Counted from the stretch's first letter, positions 3,363 to 48,446 are shown. The stretch is 49,116 nt of DNA from an uncultured Clostridia bacterium (GCA_944387325.1 CALXEN010000030.1:1-49116); one strand, 5' to 3'. Translations and numbers: made by a program. The notes: generated by a model from the letters alone, not told the origin.

Positions 3363-4127
3363 TCAGGGCTGCATCTCGGTCAAATACTCCCAGTACCGCT
3401 TGGGAAGGTTGCTTCTTTGGAGGGCTTCGTTCCTCCGTTCCTCAATGGTGAGGGCCTTGAAAAACGCCTTCCACAGGTCCTGATACTGCTTTTCCCGGGC
3501 TTCAGGGGTGGGGAGGATCACCGGCTTTTCAAACTCCAGATACTCCACCTTGCCGCCCCGTTTCAGAAGGGCCAATCCATGGCTGTTGTCAAAGATGACA
3601 AAATCCTCCTGGGGGAGCCGGTCGCAGAAGTGGTTTTGCAGAAGGGGCAGCACACAGTGGTGAGGCCGGATGACGGCGCCCAGCATCCCCTCCCGCTCCT
3701 GGAACCGGAGCACCTCCAGGTATTTTCCGCTTTCCCGGGAGACCTGCCGCTCCAGCTCCACCACCGCCGCCACATCCGGGTGCGCCAGCTGCCGGGCTGC
3801 CTGGGGGCCTTCCCGGTAGCAGAGTTCCAGGAACCGGAGGAGTTTCATCTCCTTGTCCGGGCTGTCGTTCAGGAAGGCATACATGACCAGCCGCCGGATC
3901 CAGGGTCCCATCTTTCGGATGCTGGCCTCCACCCTCTGGGCCTGGCCGGGGTGGGTGACGATCTCCACCTGGGGAAAGAGGGTGGTCTCGGGCCGGAGAA
4001 GCTGCCAGATATCGGTGGGCAGTTCCCGGTTTTGGTAGCTCTGAAAGACACAGCAGAGGAATCCCTCGTAGCTGCCGTCATACCAGTAAATGAGATCCTT
4101 GGGGATCAGAGCTTTTCTGCCAGGCAT
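3363..4127 (-). CDS. DUF4130 / TIGR03915-type probable DNA metabolism protein (partner of the radical SAM below)
   Basis: 254 aa. Its start overlaps the upstream radical SAM gene by 22 nt. Family assignment is from memory of the conserved two-gene pairing. Confidence 0.8.
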   Translation of the reverse strand: MPGRKALIPKDLIYWYDGSYEGFLCCVFQSYQNRELPTDIWQLLRPETTLFPQVEIVTHPGQAQRVEASIRKMGPWIRRLVMYAFLNDSPDKEMKLLRFLELCYREGPQAARQLAHPDVAAVVELERQVSRESGKYLEVLRFQEREGMLGAVIRPHHCVLPLLQNHFCDRLPQEDFVIFDNSHGLALLKRGGKVEYLEFEKPVILPTPEAREKQYQDLWKAFFKALTIEERRNEALQRSNLPKRYWEYLTEMQP

Positions 4128-5470
4128 TTCACTGCTTCCTCCTCCACGGTTTTGGCGGCCAGGGCGGGAGCCATCCCCTCCTCGGCCAGCTGCTGCACCT
4201 GGGGCGCCGCCCCCAGCAGGCCGGAGGGGTCCTCAAACAAACTGGTCTGGTAACTGCCGTACCCGAAGGCCTTGGGGTCCAGCAGGGACCGGACCACCAT
4301 CTCCCTCCGGGGGGAATGAGGGCCGGCGTATCCTTTGCAAGTAATGAAGTATTGGGCCCGCTTCAGCACCACCCCCAGCCGCCGCAGCCCCTCCCAGTCC
4401 AGGGTCTGCTGGCGGCGGGCGGTGCGGATTCGCCGGGCGGACTTAGGCCCGATCCCCGGCACCCGGAGGAGCATCTCAAAGGGGGCTTTGTTTACATCCA
4501 CCGGGAAGAGATGGTAGTGGTTCACCGCCCAGTTGCATTTGGGGTCCAGATAAGGGTTGAAGTTGGGGTTTTCCCGGTCCAGAATCTCCTCTGCCTGAAA
4601 ATCATAGTACCGCAGCAGCCAGTCCGCCTGGTAGAGGCGGTGCTCCCGGAGCAGCGGCGGCTTGGTGTCCGCCGCCGGGAGGCGGGAATCCTCCACCACC
4701 GGAATGTAGGCGGAGAAAAAGACCCGTTTCAGTTGGTATTTCTTGTACAGTTCCTGGGTCAGGTTGAGGATTTGGTAATCGCTTTCCGGGGTGGCCCCTA
4801 CGATCATCTGGGTGGATTGGCCCGCCGGAGCAAACTTGGGAGCCCCCCGGTAGAGCTGGAGCTCCTGCCGGTTTTCCTGGGCGGTCCGGGCGATCTGCCC
4901 CATAGGCCGGAAGATGGCCTTTCTACCCTTGTCGGGGCAGAGCAGGTTGAGGCTGGTCTCGCTGGGGAGCTCGATGTTCACCGACAGCCGGTCCGCCAGC
5001 AGGCCCAGCCGCTGCACCAGGGCCGGGTCCGCCCCGGGGATGGTTTTGGCGTGGATATACCCGTTGAAGCCATACTCTCCCCGGAGAAGTTCCAGGGCGT
5101 GGATCATCTGCTCCATGGTGTAGTCCGGATTTTTCAGGACGGCGCTGGAGAGAAACAGCCCTTCTATATAATTCCGGCGGTAAAATTCAATGGTGAGCCG
5201 GGCCAGCTCCCGGGGGGTAAAGGCGGCCCGGGGCAGGTCGTTGGACCGGCGGTTGACGCAGTATTTGCAGTCGTAGGCGCAGATGTTGGTGAGGAGCACC
5301 TTCAGAAGAGAGACGCAGCGGCCGTCCGCCGTGAAGGTGTGGCAGAGCCCGGCGTTCACCGTGTTCCCGATCTTCCCCGGCTGCCCCTGCCGTTCCGACC
5401 CGCTGGAGGTGCAGGCCACATCGTATTTGGCGCTGTCGGCCAAGATCCGGAGCTTTTCCAGCAGTTCCAT
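4106..5470 (-). CDS. putative DNA modification/repair radical SAM protein (TIGR03916-like)
   Basis: Radical SAM triad CAYDCKYC, family-typical N-terminus LADSAKYDVAC, and a C-terminal helix-hairpin-helix LLRVPGIGPKSARRI. ATG 5470 (MELLEKL) follows GGGAGAGAGG. The ORF-track start at 5500 has no RBS. Confidence 0.88.
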   Translation of the reverse strand: MELLEKLRILADSAKYDVACTSSGSERQGQPGKIGNTVNAGLCHTFTADGRCVSLLKVLLTNICAYDCKYCVNRRSNDLPRAAFTPRELARLTIEFYRRNYIEGLFLSSAVLKNPDYTMEQMIHALELLRGEYGFNGYIHAKTIPGADPALVQRLGLLADRLSVNIELPSETSLNLLCPDKGRKAIFRPMGQIARTAQENRQELQLYRGAPKFAPAGQSTQMIVGATPESDYQILNLTQELYKKYQLKRVFFSAYIPVVEDSRLPAADTKPPLLREHRLYQADWLLRYYDFQAEEILDRENPNFNPYLDPKCNWAVNHYHLFPVDVNKAPFEMLLRVPGIGPKSARRIRTARRQQTLDWEGLRRLGVVLKRAQYFITCKGYAGPHSPRREMVVRSLLDPKAFGYGSYQTSLFEDPSGLLGAAPQVQQLAEEGMAPALAAKTVEEEAVKCLAEKL

Positions 5471-5484
5471 CCTCTCTCCCTCCC

Positions 5485-5546
5485 CTGAAAAAAAGTGCAA
5501 AAAACAAGGCCCCCTCCCTTCCGGAATTTTCCGGGGCAGGAGGCCT
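5485..5546 (-). terminator. terminator-like GC hairpin plus U-run between the repressor gene and the radical SAM gene
   Basis: On the minus strand, an imperfect hairpin GGCCTCCTGCCCCGGAAAATTCCGGAAGGGAGGGGGCC is followed by TTGTTTTTTGCACTTTTTTT. It ends about 15 nt before ATG 5470. Confidence 0.5.
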
Positions 5547-5604
5547 TTACAGTCCCAATTATAGGACTTTTAATCTGGTACTCTCAAATTACGGAAGGCC
5601 CCCC

Positions 5605-6237
5605 TCACCACCGGGCCTTGGTCTCCACCACTTTCCCGGCAATGTAAAGGTGGGAAAGCTCCTCCCCCCGGAGGATCTTGTCCTCATACTGGGGATTGAA
5701 GGCTTTCAGGACCACAGCGTTCCCACGGCGGATGAACTTTTTCAGGGTGCCCTCGCCCCCTTCGTCCCCGTAGACCATAACCCCCAGGTCCCCGTCGTCC
5801 AGGGTGTTCTGGCGGTGGACCAGAGCCAGGTCTCCGTCAAAGATCCGGGGCTCCATGCTGTCCCCCTTCACCACCAGGAAGAAGTAGTTGTCCGGGTCCT
5901 TGACGCAGGCATACTCGGTGCCGTAGTCCTCCTCGAAGGCCAGGCCGCCGTACCCCGCCTTGACGGTGCCGATGACCGGGATAAGGCACTGCTTCCTCCC
6001 CCCGAAGAACCGTTCCTCCGCCTGGAGGGTCTCGGGCCCGGGCTGGTTGAAGCCCAGCAGGGTGTCGGTGGTGGTCTGGAGGACTTCGGCGATCTTGGCC
6101 ACCATATCGGGGGAGGGAGTGGCTTTATCCTTTTCCCACTTCCCCACCGCCTGCTGGGTGACCCCCAACCGGCTGGCCAGTTCTCCCTGGCTCATCTTCT
6201 GTGCCTTCCGGGCACTACGCAGAAATTCCGAAAACAT
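5605..6237 (-). CDS. LexA-like S24 autoprotease repressor with an XRE-type HTH
   Basis: 210 aa. HTH QGELASRLGVTQQAVGKWEKDK, Ala-Gly cleavage site VKAGYGG, catalytic Ser in VVKGDSMEP and Lys in GTLKKFIR. RBS GGAGGTG lies 7 nt upstream of the ATG. Confidence 0.9.
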   Translation of the reverse strand: MFSEFLRSARKAQKMSQGELASRLGVTQQAVGKWEKDKATPSPDMVAKIAEVLQTTTDTLLGFNQPGPETLQAEERFFGGRKQCLIPVIGTVKAGYGGLAFEEDYGTEYACVKDPDNYFFLVVKGDSMEPRIFDGDLALVHRQNTLDDGDLGVMVYGDEGGEGTLKKFIRRGNAVVLKAFNPQYEDKILRGEELSHLYIAGKVVETKARW

Positions 6238-6266
6238 CTGCTGCCACCTCCTTCTGTCTTGGTTTT

Positions 6267-6296
6267 ATTATACAACCATTGGTAGTTTCATGTAAA
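6267..6296 (-). promoter_or_regulatory. promoter of the LexA-like gene
   Basis: On the minus strand: TTTACA (6296-6291), 18-nt spacer, TATAAT (6272-6267). Confidence 0.5.
6272..6286. promoter_or_regulatory. candidate operator O1 (ACAAC-N5-GTAGT)
   Basis: ACAACCATTGGTAGT lies within the spacer and touches the -10 of the repressor promoter. It shares ACAACC with the sites at 6365, 6376 and 23672. Confidence 0.5.
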
Positions 6297-6335
6297 GATA
6301 TTTTTGAAATTTTTCATTTTTTTCTCAGTTTTATC

Positions 6336-6364
6336 TTGACTTTCCTCAGGAAAGCCACTATAAT
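6336..6364 (+). promoter_or_regulatory. near-consensus sigma70 promoter of the small membrane protein gene
   Basis: TTGACT (6336-6341), 17-nt spacer, TATAAT (6359-6364). Confidence 0.65.
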
Positions 6365-6390
6365 ACAACCATAACACAACCATTTGTTGT
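6365..6390. promoter_or_regulatory. candidate operator O2 (half-site plus ACAAC-N5-GTTGT)
   Basis: ACAACCAT (6365-6372) followed by ACAACCATTTGTTGT (6376-6390), immediately downstream of the -10 and covering the likely transcription start. Confidence 0.55.
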
Positions 6391-6412
6391 TAATTCTGCG
6401 GAGGTAAGTAAA

Positions 6413-6658
6413 ATGAAACAGATACTTTGCAAGCTGGGTATTGTTCTGGGCGCTCTGGTATTTTGGCTGACCATGGTCTCCACTGCCTACGCCACCGTTT
6501 CCCTGCCCGCCGGGCTGCTGGTGCTGGCTTTCTCCGCTGTTACCATCCGGGTCTGCTGGCTGGAGCTGATCCATCTGGAGATCTCTTCCCGCCGTGCCAA
6601 GGTCCTGGCCCGGCGGAAGGTGCGGGCTGCCGTCTCCTGCAAGACCACCGCCGCCTGA
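6413..6658 (+). CDS. hypothetical 81-aa protein with two TM helices and a basic C-terminal tail
   Basis: GGAGG lies 8 nt upstream of the ATG. Hydrophobic segments LGIVLGALVFWLTMVSTAYA and LPAGLLVLAFSAVTIRVCWL, then tail SSRRAKVLARRKVRAAV. Has its own promoter and terminator. The overlapping ORF 6427-6957 looks off-frame (R/P/G-rich). Confidence 0.6.
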   Translation: MKQILCKLGIVLGALVFWLTMVSTAYATVSLPAGLLVLAFSAVTIRVCWLELIHLEISSRRAKVLARRKVRAAVSCKTTAA

Positions 6659-6803: not shown

Positions 6804-8459
6804 TCAGGTCTGCTCGAAAACCTTGAGGATGGCAGGGATCAGCTGCTTTTTCCGGCTGACCACCCCGGGCAGGATCGCCAGGTCTCCCTTCCACTCCACC
6901 TGTCCGAAGGCCTCCTCCACCACCTCCCGGGCGCCGGCACCGGCCATCATCAGATAGGTGGTGGTATCACGCACACTGGTGAACATATAGAAGAGGAGAG
7001 GGACATTCTGCTTCTGCATGGCGATGGGGAGATAGCTCCGGAGAAGGTCCTGGGCAGCCTCCCGGTTTTTCTGGGTCATGTAGCTGCCCTGACCCACTCC
7101 GAACCGGTTTTCTCCGCTGGTGAAGATTTTGAAATCCTGCAGGAACACTTCCTCTGGGGATTTTCCTTCCAGGTCTCCCCCGGCTTCAAACATCTGCTGG
7201 GCGTACTCCTCCATATCCACCCCGGCGATGGTGGCCAGAGCGGTGGCAGCCTGCTCGTCCTGGGGAGTGCAGGTGGGGCTGCGGAACATGAGGGTATCGC
7301 TGAGAATGGCGGACAGCATGACCCCGGCAATCTCTCTTGGGATCTCCACCATATTCTCCAGGAACATCTGGAAGATGATGGTGCAGGTGCAGCCTACCGG
7401 CATATTCCGGAAAAAGACGGGGCCGGTGGTTTCCAGGCTGCCCAGCCGGTGGTGGTCGATGATCTCCAGGATATCCGCCCGGTCATACCCTTCCACCGCC
7501 TGGGTCCGCTCGTTGTGGTCCACCAGGATCAGCTGTTTGGGATGGAGATTCAGCAAATTCCGGCGGCTGATGACCCCGCAGTACTTTCCCTCACTGTCCA
7601 GAATGGGGAAATACCGGTGCCGCACCTGGGCCATGATCTTCCGGGCGTTTTCCACCGGGGTGTTGACGCTGAAGGTAAGGAGGTTCTGGGTGGTCATGTA
7701 GTGCCGGACCGGAGCCGCCTGGCTGATGAGACGGCTGGCCTCGTAGGTGTCGTAGGGGGTGCGGATAATGGCCACGTTCCGCTCCTCCGCCAGCCGCAGG
7801 ATGGTCTGGGGCACCTGGGCGTTCATGCAGATGACCAGGATGGAGGCCCCCAGCTCGATGGCGCAGAACTGGCTCTCGTACCGGTTGGACAGCAGTACAA
7901 TGTCTCCCGGCTTCACCAGCCCCTCCATGCTCTCGGGGGTGCCGGCATTGGCATGGAGCCGTCCGGTCTCCACCCGGCCGTTTTCATCCCCCACCACCAG
8001 GGTCCCGTCCAGGGTGGCTACCAGATTTTTGTAGCTGGTCCTGGCCTGGGCCAGGGTGGCACGGTCAAAGTTCCCCATGTTGGCGGTGGCGGTGTCCGTG
8101 ATGGTGGTGGCGCCGCTCAGTGCCCGGACCTTGGCCGTGATGACCAGGGTGTCGATGACCCGGTCCCTCAGGATGCTCCAGGCATCCTTCAGGCTGGTCT
8201 CCTCGTCAATGGGTTCCTCCACCCGGATGTCGATGTCCTCCACCTGAGGGCTCACGTCGGTGACCAGCCGGGGGGCCGGCACGCCGAAATGGTTGAGGGC
8301 AAACTCGGTCTCTCGGTTGATCTCCCCGGCCCGGCAAGCCACACATTCCATCTCGCTGGCAGCGGTTTTCAGGTAAGCATAGCTGATGGCGGCACAGATG
8401 GAATCGGTGTCCGGATTCCGGTGTCCCATCACATATATCTTTTTGTTGGTGGGTTCCAT
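6804..8459 (-). CDS. ppaC: CBS-domain family II (DHH) inorganic pyrophosphatase
   Basis: 551 aa. DHH motifs HRNPDTDS, LVDHNE and IIDHHRLG, with an inserted regulatory (CBS/DRTGG-type) region between the DHH and DHHA2 parts. Confidence 0.88.
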   Translation of the reverse strand: MEPTNKKIYVMGHRNPDTDSICAAISYAYLKTAASEMECVACRAGEINRETEFALNHFGVPAPRLVTDVSPQVEDIDIRVEEPIDEETSLKDAWSILRDRVIDTLVITAKVRALSGATTITDTATANMGNFDRATLAQARTSYKNLVATLDGTLVVGDENGRVETGRLHANAGTPESMEGLVKPGDIVLLSNRYESQFCAIELGASILVICMNAQVPQTILRLAEERNVAIIRTPYDTYEASRLISQAAPVRHYMTTQNLLTFSVNTPVENARKIMAQVRHRYFPILDSEGKYCGVISRRNLLNLHPKQLILVDHNERTQAVEGYDRADILEIIDHHRLGSLETTGPVFFRNMPVGCTCTIIFQMFLENMVEIPREIAGVMLSAILSDTLMFRSPTCTPQDEQAATALATIAGVDMEEYAQQMFEAGGDLEGKSPEEVFLQDFKIFTSGENRFGVGQGSYMTQKNREAAQDLLRSYLPIAMQKQNVPLLFYMFTSVRDTTTYLMMAGAGAREVVEEAFGQVEWKGDLAILPGVVSRKKQLIPAILKVFEQT

Positions 8460-8624
8460 AATTTCTCTCCTGTCTGATCCTGGTAAAGCCGGATCCCGCT
8501 CTTCTTCCTGTGTGATGTGTTTATTATAGTCCTTTTAGGTAGCCCCCGCAAGAATAATTCCTTCTTTGACTTTCCATTTTCAGTGTGCAAAGCGACGAAA
8601 TTTCAAAAAAATGTTTGTGTATTC

Positions 8625-8653
8625 TTGACAAATACATTTCCTTCAATTACACT
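8625..8653 (+). promoter_or_regulatory. promoter of typA
   Basis: TTGACA (8625-8630), 17-nt spacer, TACACT (8648-8653). Confidence 0.5.
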
Positions 8654-8725
8654 ATGATATGTATGCGTGGAAATGGACCTATAATTTCCTATGGAATATG
8701 AATCATACAGATAAGGATGAATCGT

Positions 8726-10546
<1,821 letters not shown>

Positions 10547-10671: not shown

Positions 10672-11898
10672 ATGGGATACAACATTGTGGTAGGACAGAG
10701 CGGCGGCCCCACCGCCGTCATCAACTCCAGTCTGGCGGGGGTCTATGAAACCGCCAAAAAGCTGGGAGTGGAAAAAGTATATGGAATGAAGTTCGGCATC
10801 GAAGGGTTTCTCCAGGATATGCTGGTGGATCTGGATTCCCTTCTGAAAGGGGACATGAGCATCGAATTGCTGAAGCGGACCCCCTCCAGCTATCTGGGAT
10901 CCTGCCGGTACAAGCTGCCCGAATCCGAGCAGGATGAGGAGGTCTACCGGACCATCTTTGCCATACTGAAGAAGTACGAGATCCAGGCCATGTTCTATAT
11001 CGGCGGGAACGACAGCATGGATACCATTGCCAAGCTGTCCCGGTACGCCCAGACCCTGAACAGTCCCATACGGTTCATTGGGGTGCCCAAAACCATTGAC
11101 AACGACCTGATGCTCACCGACCACACCCCCGGCTACGGCAGCGCTGCCAAGTACATCGCCACCATCCTCAAGGAGATGATCTGCGACTCCACCGTATACA
11201 ACATCCGGAGTGTGACGGTGGCCGAGATTATGGGCCGCCACGCAGGCTGGCTGGCGGGAGCTGCCAGTCTGGCCGCCGGGGATGACGGAGAGGGGCCTGA
11301 CATCATTCTTCTGCCGGAAGTTCCCTTTGACCCGGAGGTATTCCTGAAACGGGTGGATGATCTTCAACGGTCCAAATCCAACGTGATCATTGCCGCCAGC
11401 GAGGGGGTAAAGACCCGGGAAGGCACCTACCTCTGCGACCTGGTGAGCACTGCCGGCCAGCTGGACGCCTTCGGCCACAAGGCCATCCTCAGCGGCACCA
11501 GCCGGTACCTGAGCGACCTCATTGGTAAAAACCTGGGCTGCAAGAGCCGGGCTATCGAGTTCAGCACCCTGCAGCGGTGTGCCAGTCATCTGGCCAGCCG
11601 AAACGACATTACCGAGGCGTACATGGTGGGCGGCGCCGCTGTGAAAGCCGCTCTGGAAGGTCAGACCGGAAAGATGAGCGCTCTGAAGCGGCTCCACAAT
11701 CATCCCTACCTCTGCGTCAGCGAAATGGTGGACGTACAGGCGGTGGCCAACCTGGAAAAGAAGGTCCCGCTGGAGTGGATCACCCCCGACGGCACCCATG
11801 TAACCAAGGAATTCCTCCACTACGCCCGCCCCCTGATCCAGGGAGAATTGAGTCCCATGTTTGTCAACGGTGTTCCTCTTCATATGCATCTGGACTGA
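10672..11898 (+). CDS. pfp: phosphofructokinase, PPi-dependent type by sequence determinants (copy 1)
   Basis: 408 aa. N-terminus GQSGGPTAVINSS, then IGGNDSMDT (Asp at the position equivalent to E. coli Gly104) and GVPKTIDNDL (Lys at position 124). Confidence 0.88.
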   Translation: MGYNIVVGQSGGPTAVINSSLAGVYETAKKLGVEKVYGMKFGIEGFLQDMLVDLDSLLKGDMSIELLKRTPSSYLGSCRYKLPESEQDEEVYRTIFAILKKYEIQAMFYIGGNDSMDTIAKLSRYAQTLNSPIRFIGVPKTIDNDLMLTDHTPGYGSAAKYIATILKEMICDSTVYNIRSVTVAEIMGRHAGWLAGAASLAAGDDGEGPDIILLPEVPFDPEVFLKRVDDLQRSKSNVIIAASEGVKTREGTYLCDLVSTAGQLDAFGHKAILSGTSRYLSDLIGKNLGCKSRAIEFSTLQRCASHLASRNDITEAYMVGGAAVKAALEGQTGKMSALKRLHNHPYLCVSEMVDVQAVANLEKKVPLEWITPDGTHVTKEFLHYARPLIQGELSPMFVNGVPLHMHLD

Positions 11899-11913
11899 GC
11901 AGTGATTTTTTAT

Positions 11914-11953
11914 ACCGCAATATTTACAATGTTCTTGTTGTGTATATTGCGGT
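11914..11953 (+). repeat. perfect 10-bp inverted repeat with a 20-nt loop, downstream of pfp copy 1
   Basis: ACCGCAATAT (11914-11923) and ATATTGCGGT (11944-11953). It precedes the true terminator. Confidence 0.6.
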
Positions 11954-16440: not shown

Positions 16441-17840
16441 TACAGTCTGGCCAGCTTGGGGCCCTGGGCGGTGTCGGTGACGCTCCAGCCCAGACCGGTA
16501 AGCTGCTCCCGGATGGCGTCCGCCCGGGCCCAGTCCTTGGCCTTCTTGGCGGCGGACCGCTCATCCACCAGAGCGGTGACTTCAGCAGGGATCTCCTCTT
16601 CCTTCTTCCGGTTATAGAGAAGGCCCAGTACCCCGGTCAGCTCGTCCATGGTATGTGCGGCCTCCTCCAGAGCGGCCTTGGAGGCCTTGGAGGAAAGGGT
16701 GTTGATCTCCCGGACCAGGTCGAAGATGGCGGCCAGGGCGTCCGGGGTGTTCAGGTCGTCATCCATAGCCTTGATGAACTTCTCCCGGGCGGCGGCGCAC
16801 TTTTCTGTCAGGGTGTTCTCCCCTTCCCCGGCGGCATGGGCCAGGGCAAAGTCCAGGTTCTCCCGGCAGTTGTAAAGCCGCTCCAGGCTGTTCTTGCAGC
16901 TTTCGATCAACTCCACGGTGTAGTTCAGGGGCATACGGTACCCGGCGGTGAGCATGAAATACCGGATGGGCTCGTACCCGTACAGGTCGGCTACATCCCG
17001 GACGGTGAAGAAGTTGTGGAGGCTCTTGGACATCTTCTGGTTGTCCACGTTGATGAAACCGTTGTGCATCCAATACCGGGCAAAGGTGCATCCGTTGGCG
17101 CACTCGGACTGTGCGATCTCGTTCTCATGGTGGGGGAAGATCAGGTCCTGGCCGCCGGCGTGAAGGTCGATGGTCTTGCCCAGGTGGGTGCGGCTCATGG
17201 CGGAGCACTCAATGTGCCAGCCGGGGCGGCCCATACCGTAGGGGCTCTCCCAGGCGGGCTCCCCGGGCTTGGCGGCCTTCCAGACGGCAAAGTCGGCGGG
17301 GTCCTCCTTCAGGTCGTCCTCCATCTGGCTGCGGAGCTCCCGGTTGCCGCTTTCCAGGTCCTCCAGGTTCAGGTGGCTCAGCTTCCCGTAGCCGGGGTCG
17401 CTCTTCACCCGGAAGTACACATCCCCGTTCTTGGCCACATAGGCGTGGCCGGACTCCACCAGGTCCTTCACAATATCCAGGATCTGGGCGATGTGCTCGG
17501 TGGCCCTTGGCTGGACGGTGGGGACCTTGCAGTTGAGACCGGCAGCGTCCTTCAGGTACTCTGCCTCAAACCGCTGGGCCACCTCCTTCATGGAGGTGCC
17601 CTCCTCCTGGGCCTTGGTGATGAGCTTATCGTCGATATCGGTGATGTTGCTCACGTAGAGCACCTTGTTTCCCCGGTATTCCAGGTACCGGCGGAGGGTG
17701 TCAAAGACGATGAGGGGACGGGCGTTCCCAATATGAATATAGTTGTACACCGTGGGGCCGCAGACATAGATGCGGTATTCGCCGGGCACCTGGGGGACAA
17801 ACTCTTCCTTTTTCCGGGTAAGGGTGTTGAAAATTTCCAT
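16440..17840 (-). CDS. cysS: cysteine--tRNA ligase
   Basis: 466 aa with HIGNARP (HIGH) and KMSKS motifs. The stop overlaps the next ATG as TAATG. Confidence 0.96.
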   Translation of the reverse strand: MEIFNTLTRKKEEFVPQVPGEYRIYVCGPTVYNYIHIGNARPLIVFDTLRRYLEYRGNKVLYVSNITDIDDKLITKAQEEGTSMKEVAQRFEAEYLKDAAGLNCKVPTVQPRATEHIAQILDIVKDLVESGHAYVAKNGDVYFRVKSDPGYGKLSHLNLEDLESGNRELRSQMEDDLKEDPADFAVWKAAKPGEPAWESPYGMGRPGWHIECSAMSRTHLGKTIDLHAGGQDLIFPHHENEIAQSECANGCTFARYWMHNGFINVDNQKMSKSLHNFFTVRDVADLYGYEPIRYFMLTAGYRMPLNYTVELIESCKNSLERLYNCRENLDFALAHAAGEGENTLTEKCAAAREKFIKAMDDDLNTPDALAAIFDLVREINTLSSKASKAALEEAAHTMDELTGVLGLLYNRKKEEEIPAEVTALVDERSAAKKAKDWARADAIREQLTGLGWSVTDTAQGPKLARL

Positions 17841-19888: not shown

Positions 19889-20464
19889 TTATTTTGCCTG
19901 GGCGAAGCACTCCCGGTTCTGCCACAGGTAGATGACCCCGGAGAGAAGGGTAACGGCGGCTACTCCCCAGCAGAGGACCATGGTGACCATCATCACAAAA
20001 CCGATGGCATCGGGGCCGGCCAGGCCGGCGGCAAAATAGTAGAAGATGACGGTGACCATCTGGAGGACGGTCTTTACCTTCCCCCACATATTGGCGGCAA
20101 TGACGGTACCGGAACCGGCGGCGATCATCCGCACTCCGGCCACGGCAAACTCCCGGAAAAGGACCAGGGCCAGCACCACCGGGTGGCAGACTCCGTCCGC
20201 CATCATGTAAATAAGGGCGGCAGTGGTGAGCATTTTATCCGCCAGAGGGTCCGCAAATTTTCCGAAATCGGTGACCAGCTTCCATTTCCGGGCCAGATAG
20301 CCGTCCAGAAAATCGGTGAAGCTGGCGGCGGCAAAGACTACTCCCGCTGCCAGATAAAGGGCCGGGTTAAAATCGGCGGCACCGTACTGGGTCATTCCAG
20401 CCAGGACCATAAACACCGGCACCAGAATTACTCGGAGCATGGTGAGTTTGTTGGGCAGATTCAT
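19889..20464 (-). CDS. pgsA: CDP-diacylglycerol--glycerol-3-phosphate 3-phosphatidyltransferase
   Basis: 191 aa with the CDP-alcohol phosphatidyltransferase motif DFLDGYLARK...GKFADPLADK. Confidence 0.93.
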   Translation of the reverse strand: MNLPNKLTMLRVILVPVFMVLAGMTQYGAADFNPALYLAAGVVFAAASFTDFLDGYLARKWKLVTDFGKFADPLADKMLTTAALIYMMADGVCHPVVLALVLFREFAVAGVRMIAAGSGTVIAANMWGKVKTVLQMVTVIFYYFAAGLAGPDAIGFVMMVTMVLCWGVAAVTLLSGVIYLWQNRECFAQAK

Positions 20465-21804
20465 GCTTGGTCGCCTCCGTTCAAAGCAGGATCAAAGGTG
20501 GCGTACAGGTCCACCATATCGCTTTCGTCAATGGTCACCCGGTAGAAATCCCCGGGATAGAGGGGCTGATCACTCTTGACGCAGACACAGCCGTCAATGT
20601 CGGGGGCATCCCCCCGGGTGCGGCAGAGATAGAGGCCGCTCTCCTCGTCGATGCCGTCACAGAGGACGGTGAGGGTCCGGCCCACCTGGGCCGCCTGTTT
20701 CTGGGCCATGATCTCGCTCTGGATGCGCATGACGGTGTCTGCCCGGCGCTGTTTTTCGCCCTCCTCCAGCTGATCGGGGAAGGTGGCGGCCACGGTGTGC
20801 TCCTCCTGGCTGTAGGCAAAGCAGCCCAGCCGGTCGAATTGCATCTCCCGGACAAACTGGCAGAGCTCCTCAAACTGCTCCTGGGTCTCCCCGGGGTACC
20901 CGGCGATAAGGGTGGTGCGGAGGGTGATGCCGGGAATTTCTCTGCGGAGGCGGGCGATGGTGTCCTCCAGCATGGCCTTGGTGCTCCGGCGGTTCATCCG
21001 CTTCAGCACCTGGTCATTGCAGTGCTGGATGGGCAGGTCCAGGTAGGGCAGGATCTTTTTTCCCTTAGCCATACAGGCGATGAGCTCCGGGGTGATCCTC
21101 TCCGGATAGGCGTAGAGGAGGCGGATCCAGTCCAGCCCCTGGATCTCGTCCAGTCCCTGGAGCAGCTCCACGATCTGGTTTTTCCCCAGATCCTCCCCAT
21201 AGGCGGTGGGGTCCTGGGCCACCACGATCAGTTCCCGGACACCCTCCCCTGCCAGCCACCGGGCCTCGGCCAGGCAGTCCTCCAGAGGACGGCTCCGCAT
21301 GGGGCCCCGGATGCCGGGGATGGCGCAGTAGTGGCAGTGGTTGCTGCACCCCTCTGCGATTTTCAGGTAGGCATAGTGCCGGGGGGTGCTGATGACCCGC
21401 TTGCCCCCCAGGGGCAGGTCGGTCTTGGGGCCGTAGGATTCCAGCTGTTCCCCTCCAAAGACCCGGTCCAGTATGGCGGGAAGGGCCTTGTTGCTGCCGA
21501 TCCCCACCACGGCGTCCACCTCGGGGATCTCCTGGCGGATCTGTTCCCGGTACCGCTCGGCCAGGCAGCCGGTAACGATGACCTTCAAATCCGGATTCTG
21601 CTCCTTATAGCTGCAGGCAGTGAGGATATTTTCAATGGCCTCCTCCTTGGCGCTGTCGATGAATCCGCAGGTGTTGACCAAAATGGCGTCCGCCTCCGAC
21701 AGATCGGCGGTGGTGGTGTGCCCCTGCAGCAGCAGACTGTGGCAGAACACATCCGCATCCACCTGATTTTTGGGGCAGCCCAAGCTGATGATGGCGATTT
21801 TCAT
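20461..21804 (-). CDS. rimO: ribosomal protein S12 methylthiotransferase RimO
   Basis: 447 aa. N-terminus ISLGCPKNQVD, radical SAM triad CSNHCHYC, C-terminal TRAM-like domain. ATGA overlaps on both sides. Confidence 0.9.
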   Translation of the reverse strand: MKIAIISLGCPKNQVDADVFCHSLLLQGHTTTADLSEADAILVNTCGFIDSAKEEAIENILTACSYKEQNPDLKVIVTGCLAERYREQIRQEIPEVDAVVGIGSNKALPAILDRVFGGEQLESYGPKTDLPLGGKRVISTPRHYAYLKIAEGCSNHCHYCAIPGIRGPMRSRPLEDCLAEARWLAGEGVRELIVVAQDPTAYGEDLGKNQIVELLQGLDEIQGLDWIRLLYAYPERITPELIACMAKGKKILPYLDLPIQHCNDQVLKRMNRRSTKAMLEDTIARLRREIPGITLRTTLIAGYPGETQEQFEELCQFVREMQFDRLGCFAYSQEEHTVAATFPDQLEEGEKQRRADTVMRIQSEIMAQKQAAQVGRTLTVLCDGIDEESGLYLCRTRGDAPDIDGCVCVKSDQPLYPGDFYRVTIDESDMVDLYATFDPALNGGDQA

Positions 21805-22445
21805 TCCTCGTAATACTCGCTTTCCTGGTTAGTGTATTCCTTGAGCAGGGCCCAGACCAGCCGGGGGGCAAACCCCCGTCGGCAGAGGGCTGCCGCCACC
21901 TGCTGGGTCTTTCCCTGAGCCAACTTTTCACGGTAGCTTTTCTGGATCAGGTATTCCAGAGCCTCCTGCTCCGGGTCGGAATTTTCCTCCTCCCAGAGCT
22001 GCTCCAGCACCCGGGCCACCGTCTGCCGCTCGATCCCCTTCTGGGCCAGGGCCTGGGCGATCTGATTCCGGCTTTTATGCTGGTTCATGAGATATCGGGC
22101 CCGGTGAAGGGCAAAGGCGGCGTCGTCCACCAGCTCCAGCTCCTGCATTTTGGCCAGAGCCGCAGCGCTGGACTGGGGGTCGAACTTCCGGCAGAGCTTC
22201 TGGTACAGCTCCCCCGAGGCGTGGTCCCGAAGGGAGAGGTACTCCAGGGCTTTGTCGCAGGCCTTCCGGGTCTCGCTTTTCTGCCGCAGCTCCTCCAGCC
22301 GGGGCAGGGTGAGGGTGAGACCCTCCCGGAGTTTTTCCCGGACCAGGGTCTCCTCGTCCACCGAGAAGAGAAACTGTCCTCCGGCAAAGAGGGCGTACCG
22401 GCCCCGCTTGGTCACCGAAATGGTCTCAATGGTCAGGGTCTCCAA
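21801..22445 (-). CDS. recX: recombination regulator RecX
   Basis: 214 aa helical-repeat protein. Its TTG start is the codon immediately after the recA TAA. Confidence 0.85.
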   Translation of the reverse strand: METLTIETISVTKRGRYALFAGGQFLFSVDEETLVREKLREGLTLTLPRLEELRQKSETRKACDKALEYLSLRDHASGELYQKLCRKFDPQSSAAALAKMQELELVDDAAFALHRARYLMNQHKSRNQIAQALAQKGIERQTVARVLEQLWEEENSDPEQEALEYLIQKSYREKLAQGKTQQVAAALCRRGFAPRLVWALLKEYTNQESEYYEE

Positions 22446-23600
22446 TTAGTCCTCCACCATAATATCCAGCTCCGCCTCGCTGCCGGTGGTCTTGGGGGCC
22501 TCCGGGGCGGAAGCGGCGGGAACCTGACCGGGCATGACCAGTTCCAGCTTGGGGCCGGCCCCCTTCTTGGCCTTCACCAGCTTGTCGGCGTTGGCCCGGA
22601 CAATGGCCTCCAGTTCCTGGGCCAGTTCCGGGTGCTCGCTGAGGTAATTCTTCACATTGTCCCGGCCCTGCCACCGCAGGTCCCCGTAGGTGAACCAGGC
22701 GCCGGCCTTCTGGATGGCCCCCAGCTGGACCGACAGATCCAGGATCTCCCCGATCTTGCTGACCCCTTCTCCGAACATGATATCGAACTCGGCCTCCTTG
22801 AAGGGGGGAGCCACCTTGTTCTTGACCACCTTGGCCCGGGTGCGGTTTCCAATGAAGTTGCCGCTGGCGTCCTTCAGGCCCTCAATACGGCGGACGTCGA
22901 TCCGGACGCTGGAATAGTATTTCAGGGCACGGCCGCCGGCGGTGACCTCCGGGTTGCCGTAGACCACCCCCACCTTCTCACGAAGCTGATTGATGAAGAT
23001 ACAGACGGTGTTGGTCTTGCCGATGACGCCGGTGAGCTTCCGGAGGGCCTGGCTCATGAGCCGGGCCTGGAGGCCCACGTGGCTGTCCCCCATCTCCCCC
23101 TCGATCTCGGCCCGGGGGACCATGGCGGCTACCGAGTCCAGAACGATGGCGTCAATGGCGCCGGAACGGACCAGAGCCTCGCAGATCTCCAGGGCCTGCT
23201 CGCCGGTGTCAGGCTGGCTGACCAGAAGGCTGTCAATGTCCACCCCCAGGGCCCGGGCGTAGGCGGGATCCAGGGCGTGCTCCACATCGATGAAGGCCAC
23301 CTCTCCCCCCTGCTTCTGGGCCTCGGCCAATACATGAAGGGCCAGGGTGGTCTTACCGCTGGATTCGGGGCCGTACACCTCAATGACACGGCCTCTGGGC
23401 ATACCGCCCACCCCCAGGGCCAAATCCAGCCCCAGGCTGCCGGTGGAGATAGCGTCCACCTGCATGGCGGTGTTGGCCCCCAACTTCATGACGGCCCCCT
23501 TGCCAAACTGCTTTTCAATCTGGGCAATGGCGGTAGCCAGTGCCGCTTTCTTGTTATCCGCCGGTTTGGGTGCGGCGGCTGCTGCTTTCTTTTCTGCCAT
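22446..23600 (-). CDS. recA: recombinase RecA
   Basis: 384 aa. Walker [10 protein letters not shown] and an unmistakable RecA core. It carries a longer-than-usual C-terminal tail of about 35 aa, Pro/Ala-rich and then acidic. Confidence 0.97.
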
Positions 23601-23646
23601 AATTCGTTCTCTCCTTCGGGGCGGACCCCTGTTATTACTCAGTGGT

Positions 23647-23675
23647 ATTATACACCACTCAAGGGCAAATTACAA
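23647..23675 (-). promoter_or_regulatory. recA promoter
   Basis: On the minus strand: TTGTAA (23675-23670), 17-nt spacer, TATAAT (23652-23647). Confidence 0.55.
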
Positions 23676-23693
23676 CCTCTAGTTGTAATTTGC
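23665..23693. promoter_or_regulatory. perfect 12-bp-arm palindrome over the recA -35 (candidate SOS-type operator)
   Basis: GCAAATTACAAC-CTCTA-GTTGTAATTTGC. The core ACAAC-N5-GTTGT is the same architecture as the sites at 6272 and 6376. Confidence 0.6.
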
Positions 23694-23715
23694 TGGGAGA
23701 ATTTTTGAGCGCTTT

Positions 23716-24558
23716 TCAGGGCCGCCGGGCCAATACCACCCGGTCCCGGTCCTCCAGGTCCCGGCATACCCGTACCCGGGTCCAGCCGGCCTTCTCCAGC
23801 AGGGCGGACACCGCCGGTCCCTGCTCCCAGCCGATCTCCAGGGCCATCCAGCCGCCGGGCTTCAGACAGGGCTGGTACCGGGCGGCCAGGTACCGGTAAA
23901 AGGTCAGGCCGTCCTCTCCTCCGTCCAAGGCCATGGCGGGCTCGTGGGCCACCTCCGGCTGGAGGCTCGCCATCTCGGCCCCGGTCAGGTAGGGGGGATT
24001 GGCGGTGATCAGATCCAGGCTCCCGGCGGGGACCCTTCCCTCATAACCGAAGAGGTCCCCCTCCACCCAATCCACCCCGTAGGCGGTGCAGTTCTCCCCC
24101 AGGTAGGGCAGGGCGGCAGGGCTTTTTTCCAGGCAAGTGACCCGGGCGGCGGGGACCAGGGATTTGATCCCGATCCCCACGCAGCCGGTGCCCGCACACA
24201 GGTCCAGCACCCGGGGACTGGGGCAGCCCTCCAAAAGGGAGGCCCCTTCCTGGCAGAGAAGCTCGGTATCGCTGCGGGGGCAAAGCACCCCTTCTCCTAC
24301 CTTCAGTGTAACATTGAGGAAGTCCCATTTTCCGGACAGATACTGGAGCGGCACCCGGGCCAGCCGCTTTTGAAGCAGGCTCTCCAGCCGGTGGGCCTGG
24401 GCCTGGTCCAGGGGCGTCTCGTCAAAGCGGGGCTGACGGCCGGTGACCAGTTCCACCAGAAAAGGGCCTTCAAACTCCCAGTCGGGGCAGCCCCCCTGGC
24501 GGAGGGCCCGGCGCAGTTCCAGTGCCGCTGCCCAGGGCAGCAGCCCGGAGGTCACCAT
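23716..24558 (-). CDS. prmC: peptide chain release factor N5-glutamine methyltransferase
   Basis: 280 aa with the SAM motif VLDLCAGTGC and the catalytic ITANPPY. Confidence 0.9.
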   Translation of the reverse strand: MVTSGLLPWAAALELRRALRQGGCPDWEFEGPFLVELVTGRQPRFDETPLDQAQAHRLESLLQKRLARVPLQYLSGKWDFLNVTLKVGEGVLCPRSDTELLCQEGASLLEGCPSPRVLDLCAGTGCVGIGIKSLVPAARVTCLEKSPAALPYLGENCTAYGVDWVEGDLFGYEGRVPAGSLDLITANPPYLTGAEMASLQPEVAHEPAMALDGGEDGLTFYRYLAARYQPCLKPGGWMALEIGWEQGPAVSALLEKAGWTRVRVCRDLEDRDRVVLARRP

Positions 24559-35044: not shown

Positions 35045-36699
35045 GGGCGCACCTCCCAGCCGGTATAGATGCCCAAAAGAGCATAAACCATAAGAAGCGG
35101 GTGGACTGTGGCCAGATACATGACATAGGTGCCGATCTGGAAGGCAGCCACCTCCATGAAGGCAATGAGGAAGACCCGGAGGAGGGCCATTCCCAGCAGA
35201 CCAGTGAGGATCCACCAGACCAGCCAGTCCCGGCGTTCCTTCATCCGGAACGCCTTCCGCATTTGTAAAAAGAGGGCCAGGACCAGGGCCAGGGGCAGGG
35301 CCACAGAGTAGACCAGCCGCACCCCGTTCAGCCCCAGATAGGCCAGCTTCTGGAGGGGGCTGTAATAGGGCAGATCGCTCCCCTCCTGGGCGGCGGCGTT
35401 GGCGGAGGACCCCAGATAGTCCTCATAGACCGCCAGCTCCTCCGCCGTCCCGATGGACCGCTGGTCGGCGTAATAGGGTTCACAGTCCTGGAAGGCGGCG
35501 CAGAACCAAAGGCTGTACCCAGCCTCCTGCACCACCGGCAGGATATATTCGCTCCGCACCGAGGGAGCGGTACCCGACCGCCTGCCCCCTTCCGAGGGGA
35601 GAAGGCCGCTGTCACAGGCGGCATTGATCTCATCCGCCACCTGCTGCCAATAGCTTTGGGCGGTGAGGGCCGTTTCATACTTTCCCTCCTGCTGGGCTGC
35701 CAGCCGGACCGCCCAGTAGAAGCCCCCTGCCCGGTAGTCCCCGGACGTAGGGTTCATATAGCTGTTTCGGATGGACTCGTCCTCCTCCAGCCAGTATTGC
35801 AGGCAATCCATGGCATCGGTGGCGTCGTAGATCTTCTGCCGCACCTCATAGGGCACCGACACCAGGGGGACGAATTCCTCTTCCTCCACCCGGTTCATGG
35901 CTCCCATAGCCTGGGAGAAGCTGCCGTAGGAGAAATCCGAGAGAGTGAACACCCCATAATATGCCAGGTTGATCCCTGCAAAGACCCCCAGCACTCCGGC
36001 GGTGACTGCCGCCGGGAGAAGAAGGGAAAGGCACCGGAGCGCCTTCCGGTCCAGGGATTTTTCCCGCAGGATGAACCAGACCAGGATCCCGCTCCCTGCC
36101 AGCAGGAAGGGAGCCAGCCAGTAGCCGTCCTCCCGGCAGAGCCAGCTGGAGGCCAGCCCCAGCCCGGCCAGCAGCTGCCAGCCCAGGCTGTATTTCAGGG
36201 GCTTCTGATACCGGAGGGCATATCCCATCACCCCTGCAAAGAAGAAGAGGCAGAGGGCGGGATAGATGCTGTCCCGGTAGACCCGGAGGGTGAAGCTGGC
36301 CATGGCGGAGGGCAGGAAGACCATAAGAGCAAAGCCTGCCAGCCGGGCCCACCGCTTTTCCACCACCGGCGCTGCGGACTGGACCAGAGCCAGGCAGCCT
36401 GCCGCCCAGAGAAGCTGGTTTGCCCCCAGGTAGGGCAGGCGGAGAAAATGGATCAGGGCCAGCCAAAGGGGAAACAGCATATGTTTGGAGAGGGTGAGCC
36501 AATCGTAGGGGCCCAGCCACTGACCTGCCGTCAGGTTCTGGGCCGCCCGGAACATCAGTTCATCATCAATGGGGGCGCCCCCCACCCAGACGTAGGTGTT
36601 CTGGAAAAAGCTCAGGAGGAACTTGATCCCCGTCAGGAGGATCACTCCCAGCCAGAACCAGGAGACAGGGATATCCTTTTGGGAAAAGCGATGTTTCAT
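35032..36699 (-). CDS. hypothetical 555-aa polytopic membrane protein, GT-C-like candidate
   Basis: Start ATG 36699 (ATGA overlap with the upstream gene). After TM1 comes an acidic loop, GGAPIDDELMF, then about 8 TM helices, a soluble loop of about 180 aa, and 3 C-terminal TM helices. The stop overlaps the flavoprotein GTG by 13 nt. Confidence 0.8.
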   Translation of the reverse strand: MKHRFSQKDIPVSWFWLGVILLTGIKFLLSFFQNTYVWVGGAPIDDELMFRAAQNLTAGQWLGPYDWLTLSKHMLFPLWLALIHFLRLPYLGANQLLWAAGCLALVQSAAPVVEKRWARLAGFALMVFLPSAMASFTLRVYRDSIYPALCLFFFAGVMGYALRYQKPLKYSLGWQLLAGLGLASSWLCREDGYWLAPFLLAGSGILVWFILREKSLDRKALRCLSLLLPAAVTAGVLGVFAGINLAYYGVFTLSDFSYGSFSQAMGAMNRVEEEEFVPLVSVPYEVRQKIYDATDAMDCLQYWLEEDESIRNSYMNPTSGDYRAGGFYWAVRLAAQQEGKYETALTAQSYWQQVADEINAACDSGLLPSEGGRRSGTAPSVRSEYILPVVQEAGYSLWFCAAFQDCEPYYADQRSIGTAEELAVYEDYLGSSANAAAQEGSDLPYYSPLQKLAYLGLNGVRLVYSVALPLALVLALFLQMRKAFRMKERRDWLVWWILTGLLGMALLRVFLIAFMEVAAFQIGTYVMYLATVHPLLMVYALLGIYTGWEVRPWQR

Positions 36700-47789: not shown

Positions 47790-48431
47790 ATGGCGAACCG
47801 TGTAAACTATGCCAAAGAGATGGACAAGGTGTTGGCCGGGCTGGCCGGCGAGCGGCCAAAGCTCCTTCTCCACGCCTGCTGCGCCCCCTGCAGCAGCGGC
47901 ACCCTGCCCCAGCTGGAAGCGCATTTTGACATTACCATACTTTACTATAATCCCAACATCGACCCGCCGGAGGAGTATCACCGCCGGGAGGGGGAGCTGG
48001 AGGCTTTTCTGGAAGCCAGCGGCCGCCGGGGGATCCCGGTGGTGGAGCTGCCTTACGATCCCCGGGAATTCTATGAATCCGTGAAGGGCCTGGAACAGGA
48101 ACCGGAGCGGGGCCGGCGGTGCACCGTCTGTTACCGGCTCCGGATGGAGCAGGCCGCCCGGTATGCGGCGGAGCAGGGGTTTGACTGGTTCACCACCACC
48201 CTCTCCATCAGCCCCCTGAAAGACCCGGTGAGAATCAATGAAATCGGGGCGGAGCTGGAAAAGGAATACGGGGTGAAACACCTGCCCAGCGAGTTCCGGA
48301 AGCGGGACGGGTACAAACACAGCCTGGAGGAGAGCGCCAAGTACCATCTCTACCGGCAGGACTACTGCGGCTGTATTTACAGCCGACTGGAGCGGGAAAA
48401 ACAAGCAGCAGCAAAAAAAGAGGAAGGCTGA
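47790..48431 (+). CDS. queH: epoxyqueuosine reductase QueH (DUF208)
   Basis: 213 aa with conserved Cys clusters HACCAPCS, CTVCYRLR and YRQDYCGC. Confidence 0.9.
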   Translation: MANRVNYAKEMDKVLAGLAGERPKLLLHACCAPCSSGTLPQLEAHFDITILYYNPNIDPPEEYHRREGELEAFLEASGRRGIPVVELPYDPREFYESVKGLEQEPERGRRCTVCYRLRMEQAARYAAEQGFDWFTTTLSISPLKDPVRINEIGAELEKEYGVKHLPSEFRKRDGYKHSLEESAKYHLYRQDYCGCIYSRLEREKQAAAKKEEG

Positions 48432-48446
48432 GCCTTCCTCTTTTTG
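48420..48446. terminator. bidirectional terminator between queH and purB
   Basis: GAGGAAGGC-TGA-GCCTTCCTC with the queH stop codon in the loop, followed by TTTTT. Confidence 0.75.

Follow-up and report, generated by a model that had tools for sequence, protein, structure and literature searches.

The recA upstream region and its conserved core

A perfect 29-bp palindrome, GCAAATTACAAC-CTCTA-GTTGTAATTTGC, is found upstream of recA in an uncultured Clostridia bacterium (GCA_944387325.1, CALXEN010000030.1:1-49116). The whole stretch of DNA analysed, termed the window, is 49,116 bp in length with 59.9% G+C. The palindrome is situated between prmC and recA, both on the minus strand, where 115 bp separate the prmC stop (23716) from the recA ATG (23600). 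The subject here is this palindrome, the 15-bp core within it, and a gene of the same window that encodes a protein with an XRE-type helix-turn-helix (HTH) and an S24 peptidase domain (termed XRE-S24), of which the core is a predicted operator. The features at the recA end are as follows (nt, nucleotides):

23665..23693, no strand: perfect 29-bp palindrome (arms 12 bp, spacer 5 nt) ahead of recA; relatives keep only the 15-bp core
23672..23686, no strand: core operator ACAAC-CTCTA-GTTGT, a predicted XRE-S24 dimer site
23647..23675, minus strand: recA promoter, -35 TTGTAA (23675-23670), 17 nt, -10 TATAAT (23652-23647)
22446..23600, minus strand: recA (PF00154, 4e-138; TIGR02012, 536.8 bits)
23716-24558, minus strand: prmC (TIGR03534)

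A promoter scan of positions 23560-23760 gave a sole sigma-70-like site, TTGTAA-17-TATAAT on the recA strand (10/12 matches; the mean for shuffled sequences is 0.0). Its -35 falls in the palindrome arm nearest recA (23665-23676 in window coordinates). A sequence-only reading of the window had described a perfect palindrome whose right arm holds the -35 of this promoter; the sequence and the promoter scan agree with this. It should be noted that "right arm" is valid for the -35-bearing arm only when reading in the recA direction.

The core sequence ACAAC-N5-GTTGT occurs exactly at two positions in the window, 6376 and 23672. One thousand dinucleotide-preserving shuffles gave a mean of 0.009 occurrences, and none of them had two. 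With up to one mismatch there are four sites (6272, 6376, 17030 and 23672), against 0.5 expected. The one-mismatch site at 17030 lies within cysS and was set aside as a probable chance match.

Relatives of the recA locus were obtained mainly by a metagenome scan with the poorly conserved neighbour RecX, which yielded 80 loci from human-gut assemblies. Sixty-seven loci, the window counted in, have a readable recA upstream region. An exact core is present over the recA -35 in 62 of these. In all 62 the recA-side arm holds TTGTA[A/T/G], 16-17 nt from TATAAT or TATACT. Four of the five loci that have no core are those with the most divergent RecA (69%-77% identity); the fifth (L102) is rearranged, with an unrelated gene fused directly upstream.

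As 31-mers, the 62 recA sites fall into 23 distinct sequences, in which neither 5-nt arm ever changes (2.0 bits per position), while the spacer shows ten variants and the flanks drift, the left flank being almost uninformative. The full 29-bp palindrome was considered as the functional unit and was rejected, as the arms vary among relatives past 5-6 bp. The extended arms are particular to the lineage of the window, and another locus (L094) has a different 13-bp extension. The predicted functional unit is the 15-bp core ACAAC-N5-GTTGT. The expectation that the palindrome is conserved upstream of recA in relatives holds for the core and fails for the full 29 bp.

In 1,056,671 bases of related loci, exact cores are found only at the recA promoter, in the XRE-S24 intergenic region and at the promoter of one phage-like open reading frame (ORF; L081:353). 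By our own calculation from base frequencies, we take about 0.6 chance matches to be expected in a sequence of this size. One-mismatch cores in an AT-rich context are nearly all O1 operators of the XRE-S24 loci described below. About 1 Mb of flanking sequence shows neither an exact core nor an AT-rich one-mismatch site upstream of further genes, and no other SOS genes are present in the window or in any fetched sequence.

The gap upstream of recA was also searched for GAAC-N4-GTTC, the Cheo box of Gram-positive LexA. It is not present in positions 23601-23716, where the best match has two mismatches; the only exact copy in the window, at 36550, is inside an ORF. Among 49 distinct recA upstream sequences of the Faecalibacterium group there is no Cheo box, with one mismatch allowed. 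A RecA scan of genome contigs, in which the matches listed are mostly of distant taxa, was used as a control. Among those matches, Lachnospiraceae, Clostridium, Tissierella and other Clostridia have an exact GAAC-N4-GTTC 31-135 nt upstream of the RecA match, and several other Oscillospirales (L004, L008, L015, L029 and L038) have one-mismatch Cheo boxes at recA. One close named recA upstream region, that of Faecalibacterium sp. UMGS253 (L002), is also among them. The sequence-only reading had noted that there is no GAAC-N4-GTTC at recA and had suggested comparative genomics as a check; the first point stands, and the comparison agrees with the prediction of that reading, with the core over the -35 in the relatives and the Cheo box in its place in other Clostridia.

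In Ruthenibacterium (L003, positions ~9750-9943) ACTGTAC-N10-ACTGTAA is found downstream of a promoter-like site at recA, and this may be another operator type. In L081 (positions 340-440) an exact operator is inside a promoter-like sequence, TTGACAACTGATAGTTGTTGATATAG, ahead of a phage-like ORF, MTYQEKMKWLGRYQ..., which continues into the prmC 3' end; the distance to the recA operator downstream is about 320 bp. The arrangement is either an insertion remnant or an assembly chimera. In L157 (positions 7400-10000) a tyrosine-integrase element is directly upstream of recX, with no recA before recX on the contig, and the regulatory region of the element has a related one-mismatch site, TACAACTATACAAAACTTACGGTTGTAT.

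Positions 48416-48444 of the window hold a further perfect palindrome, AAAAGAGGAAGG-CTGAG-CCTTCCTCTTTT, whose arms are 12 bp and whose spacer is 5 nt long. It has A and T runs on its flanks and convergent genes on either side, and looks like an ordinary bidirectional terminator. This second palindrome has to be added to the sequence-only reading.

The genes that follow recA are:

21801..22445, minus strand: recX (RecX_HTH1/2/3)
20461..21804, minus strand: rimO (TIGR01125, 474.7 bits)
19889..20464, minus strand: pgsA (TIGR00560, 160.9 bits)

The recA and recX genes abut, and recX-rimO and rimO-pgsA overlap by 4 nt each, in agreement with the recA-recX-rimO-pgsA unit proposed earlier. The order prmC-recA-recX-rimO-pgsA is kept in relatives. 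The rimO gene is probably in one transcript with recA-recX.

The XRE-S24 gene and its predicted operators

The second exact core of the window is in the intergenic region of the XRE-S24 gene. The features of this locus are (aa, amino acids):

5605..6237, minus strand: XRE-S24 repressor, 210 aa, HTH_3 and Peptidase_S24; a predicted non-canonical LexA
6296-6267, minus strand: XRE-S24 promoter, TTTACA (6296-6291), 18 nt, TATAAT (6272-6267)
6272..6286, no strand: operator O1, ACAACCATTGGTAGT, one mismatch; takes up the spacer of the XRE-S24 promoter and reaches its -10
6336-6364, plus strand: divergent promoter, TTGACT (6336), 17 nt, TATAAT (6364)
6365-6369: extra half-site ACAAC
6376..6390, no strand: operator O3, ACAACCATTTGTTGT, exact; directly past the divergent promoter
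6413..6658, plus strand: divergent 81-aa membrane ORF with a good ribosome-binding site, under O3
4106..5470, minus strand: putative DNA modification/repair radical-SAM protein (TIGR03916, 659.9 bits), immediately downstream of XRE-S24
3363..4127, minus strand: DUF4130/TIGR03915 putative DNA repair protein, partner of the radical-SAM gene

Pfam searches show XRE-S24 to have an HTH_3 domain at residues 6-59 and a Peptidase_S24 domain at residues 87-204; residues 2-61 match HTH_3, HTH_31 and HTH_19. The LexA_DNA_bind winged helix (PF01726) is not found in the protein by Pfam. The LexA model TIGR00498 gives 67.7 bits, below its cutoff of 110.95, and matches only the C-terminal half (residues 83-204).

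The XRE-S24 sequence was aligned with E. coli and B. subtilis LexA and with lambda CI. Residues A94-G95, S127 and K166 align with A84-G85, S119 and K156 of LexA and with A111-G112, S149 and K192 of lambda CI. In an independent comparison, the S24 domain also aligned with solved LexA structures. These four residue positions are conserved in 119-120 of 120 orthologs, and the recognition helix GVTQQAVGKWE is conserved equally. XRE-S24 keeps every residue needed for self-cleavage, and the cleavage is predicted on this basis.

The N-terminal domain has matches in the PDB that include P22 C2, CylR2 and the 434 repressor. Its identity to the phage 434 repressor is 33% (E-value = 1e-8), with Q28-Q29 aligned on Q28-Q29. 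In co-crystal structures of the 434 repressor, glutamines Q28-Q29 read the ACA of ACAA-N6-TTGT operators. By analogy, this supports a reading of the ACAA half-site by the TQQ helix of XRE-S24, the base contacts being predicted.

Orthologs of XRE-S24 are found with 65%-84% identity across Faecalibacterium, Gemmiger and Subdoligranulum, where they are named in the source records as XRE family regulator, "LexA family protein" or "repressor LexA". Some are on contigs of ~3 Mb, which is whole-chromosome size. The neighbours of the gene are housekeeping genes that differ by lineage, and there are no phage genes in the window around positions 5605-6658. XRE-S24 is thus a chromosomal, vertically conserved gene and not a prophage gene. 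A tblastn search of the fetched loci, as distinct from whole genomes, with B. subtilis LexA found only the S24 half of XRE-S24 genes.

Five orthologous loci from named Faecalibacterium or Gemmiger, with differing neighbourhoods, were fetched for comparison. They display a recurring module: a divergent small ORF (75-103 aa), XRE-S24, and usually the TIGR03916 radical-SAM gene with TIGR03915/DUF4130. Each orthologous locus has one to three operators, mostly two or three, at fixed promoter positions. O1 overlaps the -10 of the repressor promoter and in most of the orthologous loci has the form AC-N2-C (bases 3 and 4 vary), N5, GTTGTATAAT; it is more degenerate in L196. O2, TTGACAACAAC-N5-GTTGTAT-TATA, fills the -35/-10 spacer of the divergent promoter, and has been lost from the window and from the P0150 lineage. 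O3 follows directly after the divergent promoter. O1 is still present in those lineages that have a tRNA gene and a prophage in place of the small ORF.

The core is thus found in the promoter of XRE-S24 itself at every orthologous locus fetched, which is the usual signature of an autoregulated repressor. The presence of a repressor-promoter motif at a target promoter as well, conserved across genera, is the standard comparative-genomics basis for LexA-type regulons (for the method, see PMC8565304). The proposed link of XRE-S24 to recA through a common motif is supported in this manner; the sites at the repressor locus of the window were, however, described too uniformly, since 6376 is an exact core and 6272 has one mismatch.

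The 81-aa ORF at 6413-6658 has no Pfam or NCBIfam match. Small divergent ORFs were compared in the window (6413-6658, plus strand), L161 (3679-3990), L164 (9484-9765), L166 (9418-9678), L168 (5054-5281) and L196 (9517-9786). They show almost no common sequence, but each has ~50 aa of hydrophobic sequence at the N terminus, with two likely membrane helices, and a tail that is basic. In four of the six the C-terminal residues are Ala-Ala (TAA, HAA, RAA and RAA). This could be a degradation tag of the ssrA type, borne by a membrane protein that is induced by damage, and the 6413-6658 ORF is a candidate for a small protein of this type. In B. subtilis (lexA/yneA) and S. aureus (lexA/sosA) a gene for a small membrane protein is divergent from lexA. 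The small ORF is placed as yneA and sosA are beside lexA, and by this analogy it is a candidate division inhibitor.

The radical-SAM gene is adjacent to XRE-S24 in most, but not all, orthologous loci. In the abundant P0150 Faecalibacterium lineage (L196-L198, positions 10688-11920) an HI0933-like flavoprotein gene follows XRE-S24 in place of radical-SAM/DUF4130; therefore the repair cassette is not a fixed part of the module. A SplB-like radical-SAM/DUF4130 cassette is a known member of the SOS regulon in other phyla (PMC8565304, PMC3765255).

Viral contigs scanned with the XRE-S24 protein gave two groups of relatives. One consists of seven "viral" contigs from IMG/VR (L170-L176) that have an XRE-S24 ortholog at the very edge of the prophage prediction, with a tRNA gene in place of the upstream small ORF. 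This suggests a prophage integrated at that tRNA and a host repressor miscounted as a phage gene by the virus caller.

The other group consists of true phage repressors with 31%-55% identity in the HTH, some of them full XRE-S24 proteins and others consisting of the HTH alone. A SQQAVGKWE helix is common in this CI group, and most members have ACAAC-N5-GTTGT in a three-operator, divergent-promoter layout. There are 7870 phage CI-like relatives at E <= 1e-20. One CI of this group, P0313 (373 contigs), belongs to a complete immunity region, where cro-like, replication, ParAB and integrase genes are also found; the adjacent host flank has 60% G+C. A megablast search of the phage homologs gave no match among cultured phages. 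In L194 (positions 5800-6000) a phage repressor with a RTQQAVGKWE helix has ACAAG-GTACT-CTTGT upstream and not ACAAC-N5-GTTGT; this is a fifth-position variant, and it matches ACAAG, the half-site of 434 OR1. The chromosomal XRE-S24 module looks like a domesticated phage immunity switch. A phage-repressor origin has also been proposed for HdiR, the Bacteroidetes regulators and FddR (PMC8565304, PMC13148647).

A proposed damage-inducible circuit and its alternatives

It is probable, from the sequence comparisons above, that the core is an XRE-S24 operator in a damage-inducible circuit, with binding, repression and RecA-dependent cleavage by XRE-S24 as its predicted steps. On the best reading, XRE-S24 would be a domesticated CI-type repressor that serves as the non-canonical LexA of Faecalibacterium, Gemmiger and Subdoligranulum. 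An XRE-S24 dimer on the recA -35 would block RNA polymerase. The protein would also repress its own promoter via O1 over the -10, and the promoter of the divergent small membrane protein via O3 (plus O2 in relatives). Upon DNA damage, RecA on single-stranded DNA would stimulate the Ser127/Lys166 dyad to cut the protein itself at Ala94-Gly95. With this self-cleavage the DNA-binding domains would part from the dimerisation domain and the promoters would be freed, with induction of the small membrane ORF, the repressor gene and recA-recX, the last probably together with rimO-pgsA.

A number of observations weigh against this proposal. The right arm with the adjoining AAT partly coincides with the -35, so that some of its conservation reflects promoter function, although the conservation of the left arm has no such explanation. 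The left arm of O1 is nearly always imperfect, and the number of operators differs by lineage. Neither the Cheo box nor the ACAAC motif is present at recA in Ruthenibacterium (L003), although its RecA is 82% identical; the boundary of the system is therefore not simply a matter of RecA similarity. In the 5471-5604 gap between XRE-S24 and the radical-SAM gene there is a promoter-like TTGAGA-18-TATAAT (5587-5558, minus strand) with no operator, followed by a G+C-rich imperfect hairpin and a T-run before the radical-SAM start. This may be a separate radical-SAM promoter, or an attenuator. As this site is operator-free and the radical-SAM/DUF4130 pair is absent from the P0150 lineage, co-regulation of the pair with the repressor is not claimed. 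The loci examined are those of recA and the repressor, with no uvrAB, Y-family polymerase, ruvAB or recN promoter among them, so that a small regulon is possible. These genomes may also have a canonical LexA at another place, which would count against the proposal, in which binding, repression, cleavage and induction by XRE-S24 are all predictions.

The palindrome may also be an RNA element and not a protein site: a hairpin that terminates or stabilises the prmC transcript at its 3' end, or a structure of the leader. It begins 23 nt past the prmC stop on the same strand, and the window sequence has a fold of about -15 to -17 kcal/mol (z = -3.8), as has L094 (-15.5 kcal/mol). But the stem is AT-rich, there is no U-tract after it, and it is not called by a terminator scan; most relatives pair over 5-6 bp only and fold like shuffled sequences (z +0.3 to -1.7). 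Moreover, the loop and flanks vary while the arm sequence is invariant, and invariant arms without compensatory substitutions point to base-specific protein recognition and not to structure. The core is also found in the promoter region of the repressor, including the -35/-10 spacer of the divergent promoter. A terminator or RNA hairpin was rejected on account of the AT-rich stem, the lack of a T-run and the lack of hairpin conservation, and an RNA element of any kind is very improbable. That the palindrome is a chance occurrence or a lineage-specific oddity without function has a practically negligible probability: the 12-bp arms are indeed specific to the lineage of the window, but two exact cores are present where 0.009 are expected, and the core is kept in 62 loci amid drifting surroundings.

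If the core is a real operator, another regulator may bind it, such as another XRE protein, or the CI of a resident prophage with like specificity. There are many CI-like proteins of phages with the same recognition helix and operators, as the 7870 relatives show, and they are found in prophages with a host flank of 60% G+C. Prophages vary, however, and the recA operator does not: it is fixed in the whole lineage. The chromosomal XRE-S24 gene is the only gene found that always bears the motif in its own promoter. Of the loci read, only L170-L176 place it at the border of a prophage; in all others it is outside phage contexts. Binding by another regulator is considered improbable.

A reading that deserves more weight, though it is held to be unlikely, is that XRE-S24 binds the core but has an accessory or non-SOS role while a canonical LexA runs the main SOS regulon. 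Only three motif-bearing transcription units were seen, and HdiR and FddR control small networks (PMC8565304, PMC13148647). XRE-S24 would then control only recA, itself and the small ORF, or answer another signal, as is reported for HdiR with heat and competence. On the other side, the SOS response has its two core genes in recA and the repressor gene (PMC8565304), and there is no Cheo-like box at recA in the 49 distinct upstream sequences. The self-cleavage residues are strictly conserved, which in our view is sensible only for a cleavage that responds to RecA*.

A further-reaching proposal is that the host SOS repressor and a large family of temperate phages use one operator code (ACAAC-N5-GTTGT, with a ...SQQAVGKWE helix as its reader) and are cross-wired, with canonical LexA fully displaced from the lineage by the domesticated immunity module. 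This is rather doubtful. If it is true, the host repressor could hold phage lytic promoters, and a resident phage CI could sit on the host recA promoter, thereby damping its own inducing signal.

In the human colon, Faecalibacterium, Gemmiger and Subdoligranulum rank among the bacteria of highest abundance. How they respond to DNA damage determines prophage induction, mutagenesis and whether they survive exposure to antibiotics, bile and inflammation. With a defined motif and a candidate repressor, the regulon becomes predictable from sequence. The proposed circuit, if true, would represent a further, probably independent, takeover of recA control by a phage CI-type S24 repressor. Since extant phages still carry the same repressor-operator pair, it would be a good system for the study of how SOS networks arise from phage parts.

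Comparison with known systems

In the literature searched there is no report of the ACAAC-N5-GTTGT motif, nor of an SOS regulator or LexA of the Faecalibacterium group. The suggestion that the motif is not among the described LexA-box classes is in accord with this, but the replacement of LexA by XRE/CI-type S24 proteins is already known (PMC8565304, PMC13148647). The principle is familiar from HdiR, the non-canonical LexA of Bacteroidetes, FddR and UmuDAb; what is added here is a new class of operator, with a link to extant phages that is unusually clear.

With the canonical Gram-positive LexA, XRE-S24 has in common an operator on the recA promoter, predicted autoregulation, an S24 domain with Ala-Gly, Ser and Lys, and a divergent small membrane protein. 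It differs in having an XRE HTH and not the LexA winged helix, with TIGR00498 below cutoff, and in its motif, with no Cheo box at recA.

The phage 434 repressor is similar in the aligned TQQ at the start of the recognition helix, in half-sites that begin with ACAA, and in a layout of three operators and divergent promoters in the immunity region. The half-sites here are 1 bp further apart (ACAA-N7-TTGT as compared with ACAA-N6-TTGT), and position 33 is Lys here and Gln in 434. In addition, the XRE-S24 gene is chromosomal, conserved and outside a prophage, with one operator at recA.

HdiR of the Streptococcaceae Lactococcus lactis, Streptococcus thermophilus and S. uberis is also a protein of Bacillota with a CI-type HTH and an S24 domain, and it clusters with phage repressors. 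It is autoregulated, undergoes RecA-dependent cleavage, and controls cinA-recA in S. thermophilus (PMC8565304). Unlike XRE-S24, which is of Oscillospirales, HdiR is found in Lactobacillales; it mainly controls umuC cassettes and needs Clp processing, and no ACAAC-N5-GTTGT is reported in the HdiR literature surveyed.

The non-canonical LexA of Bacteroidetes likewise has a PF01381 HTH and an S24 domain with conserved cleavage residues. Its operators are palindromes with a 5-nt spacer, i.e. CTAA-N5-TTAG, GGA-N5-TCC and TTAC-N5-GTAA (Sanchez-Osuna et al. 2021, PMC8565304). It regulates itself, recA and a splB-type radical-SAM cassette, and a phage-repressor origin has been proposed for it (PMC8565304). 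The phylum and the half-sites are different. The Bacteroidetes proteins also form a clade of their own apart from the COG2932 phage repressors, whereas phages have close homologs of XRE-S24 that go with the same operators.

FddR of Francisella is a phage-derived chromosomal S24 repressor with a small DNA-damage network in a lineage without LexA (PNAS Nexus 2026, PMC13148647), and resembles XRE-S24 in this respect. It is, however, gammaproteobacterial, of the lambdoid-repressor type and restricted to one genus. XRE-S24 is thus probably an independent domestication relative to HdiR, the Bacteroidetes regulators and FddR.

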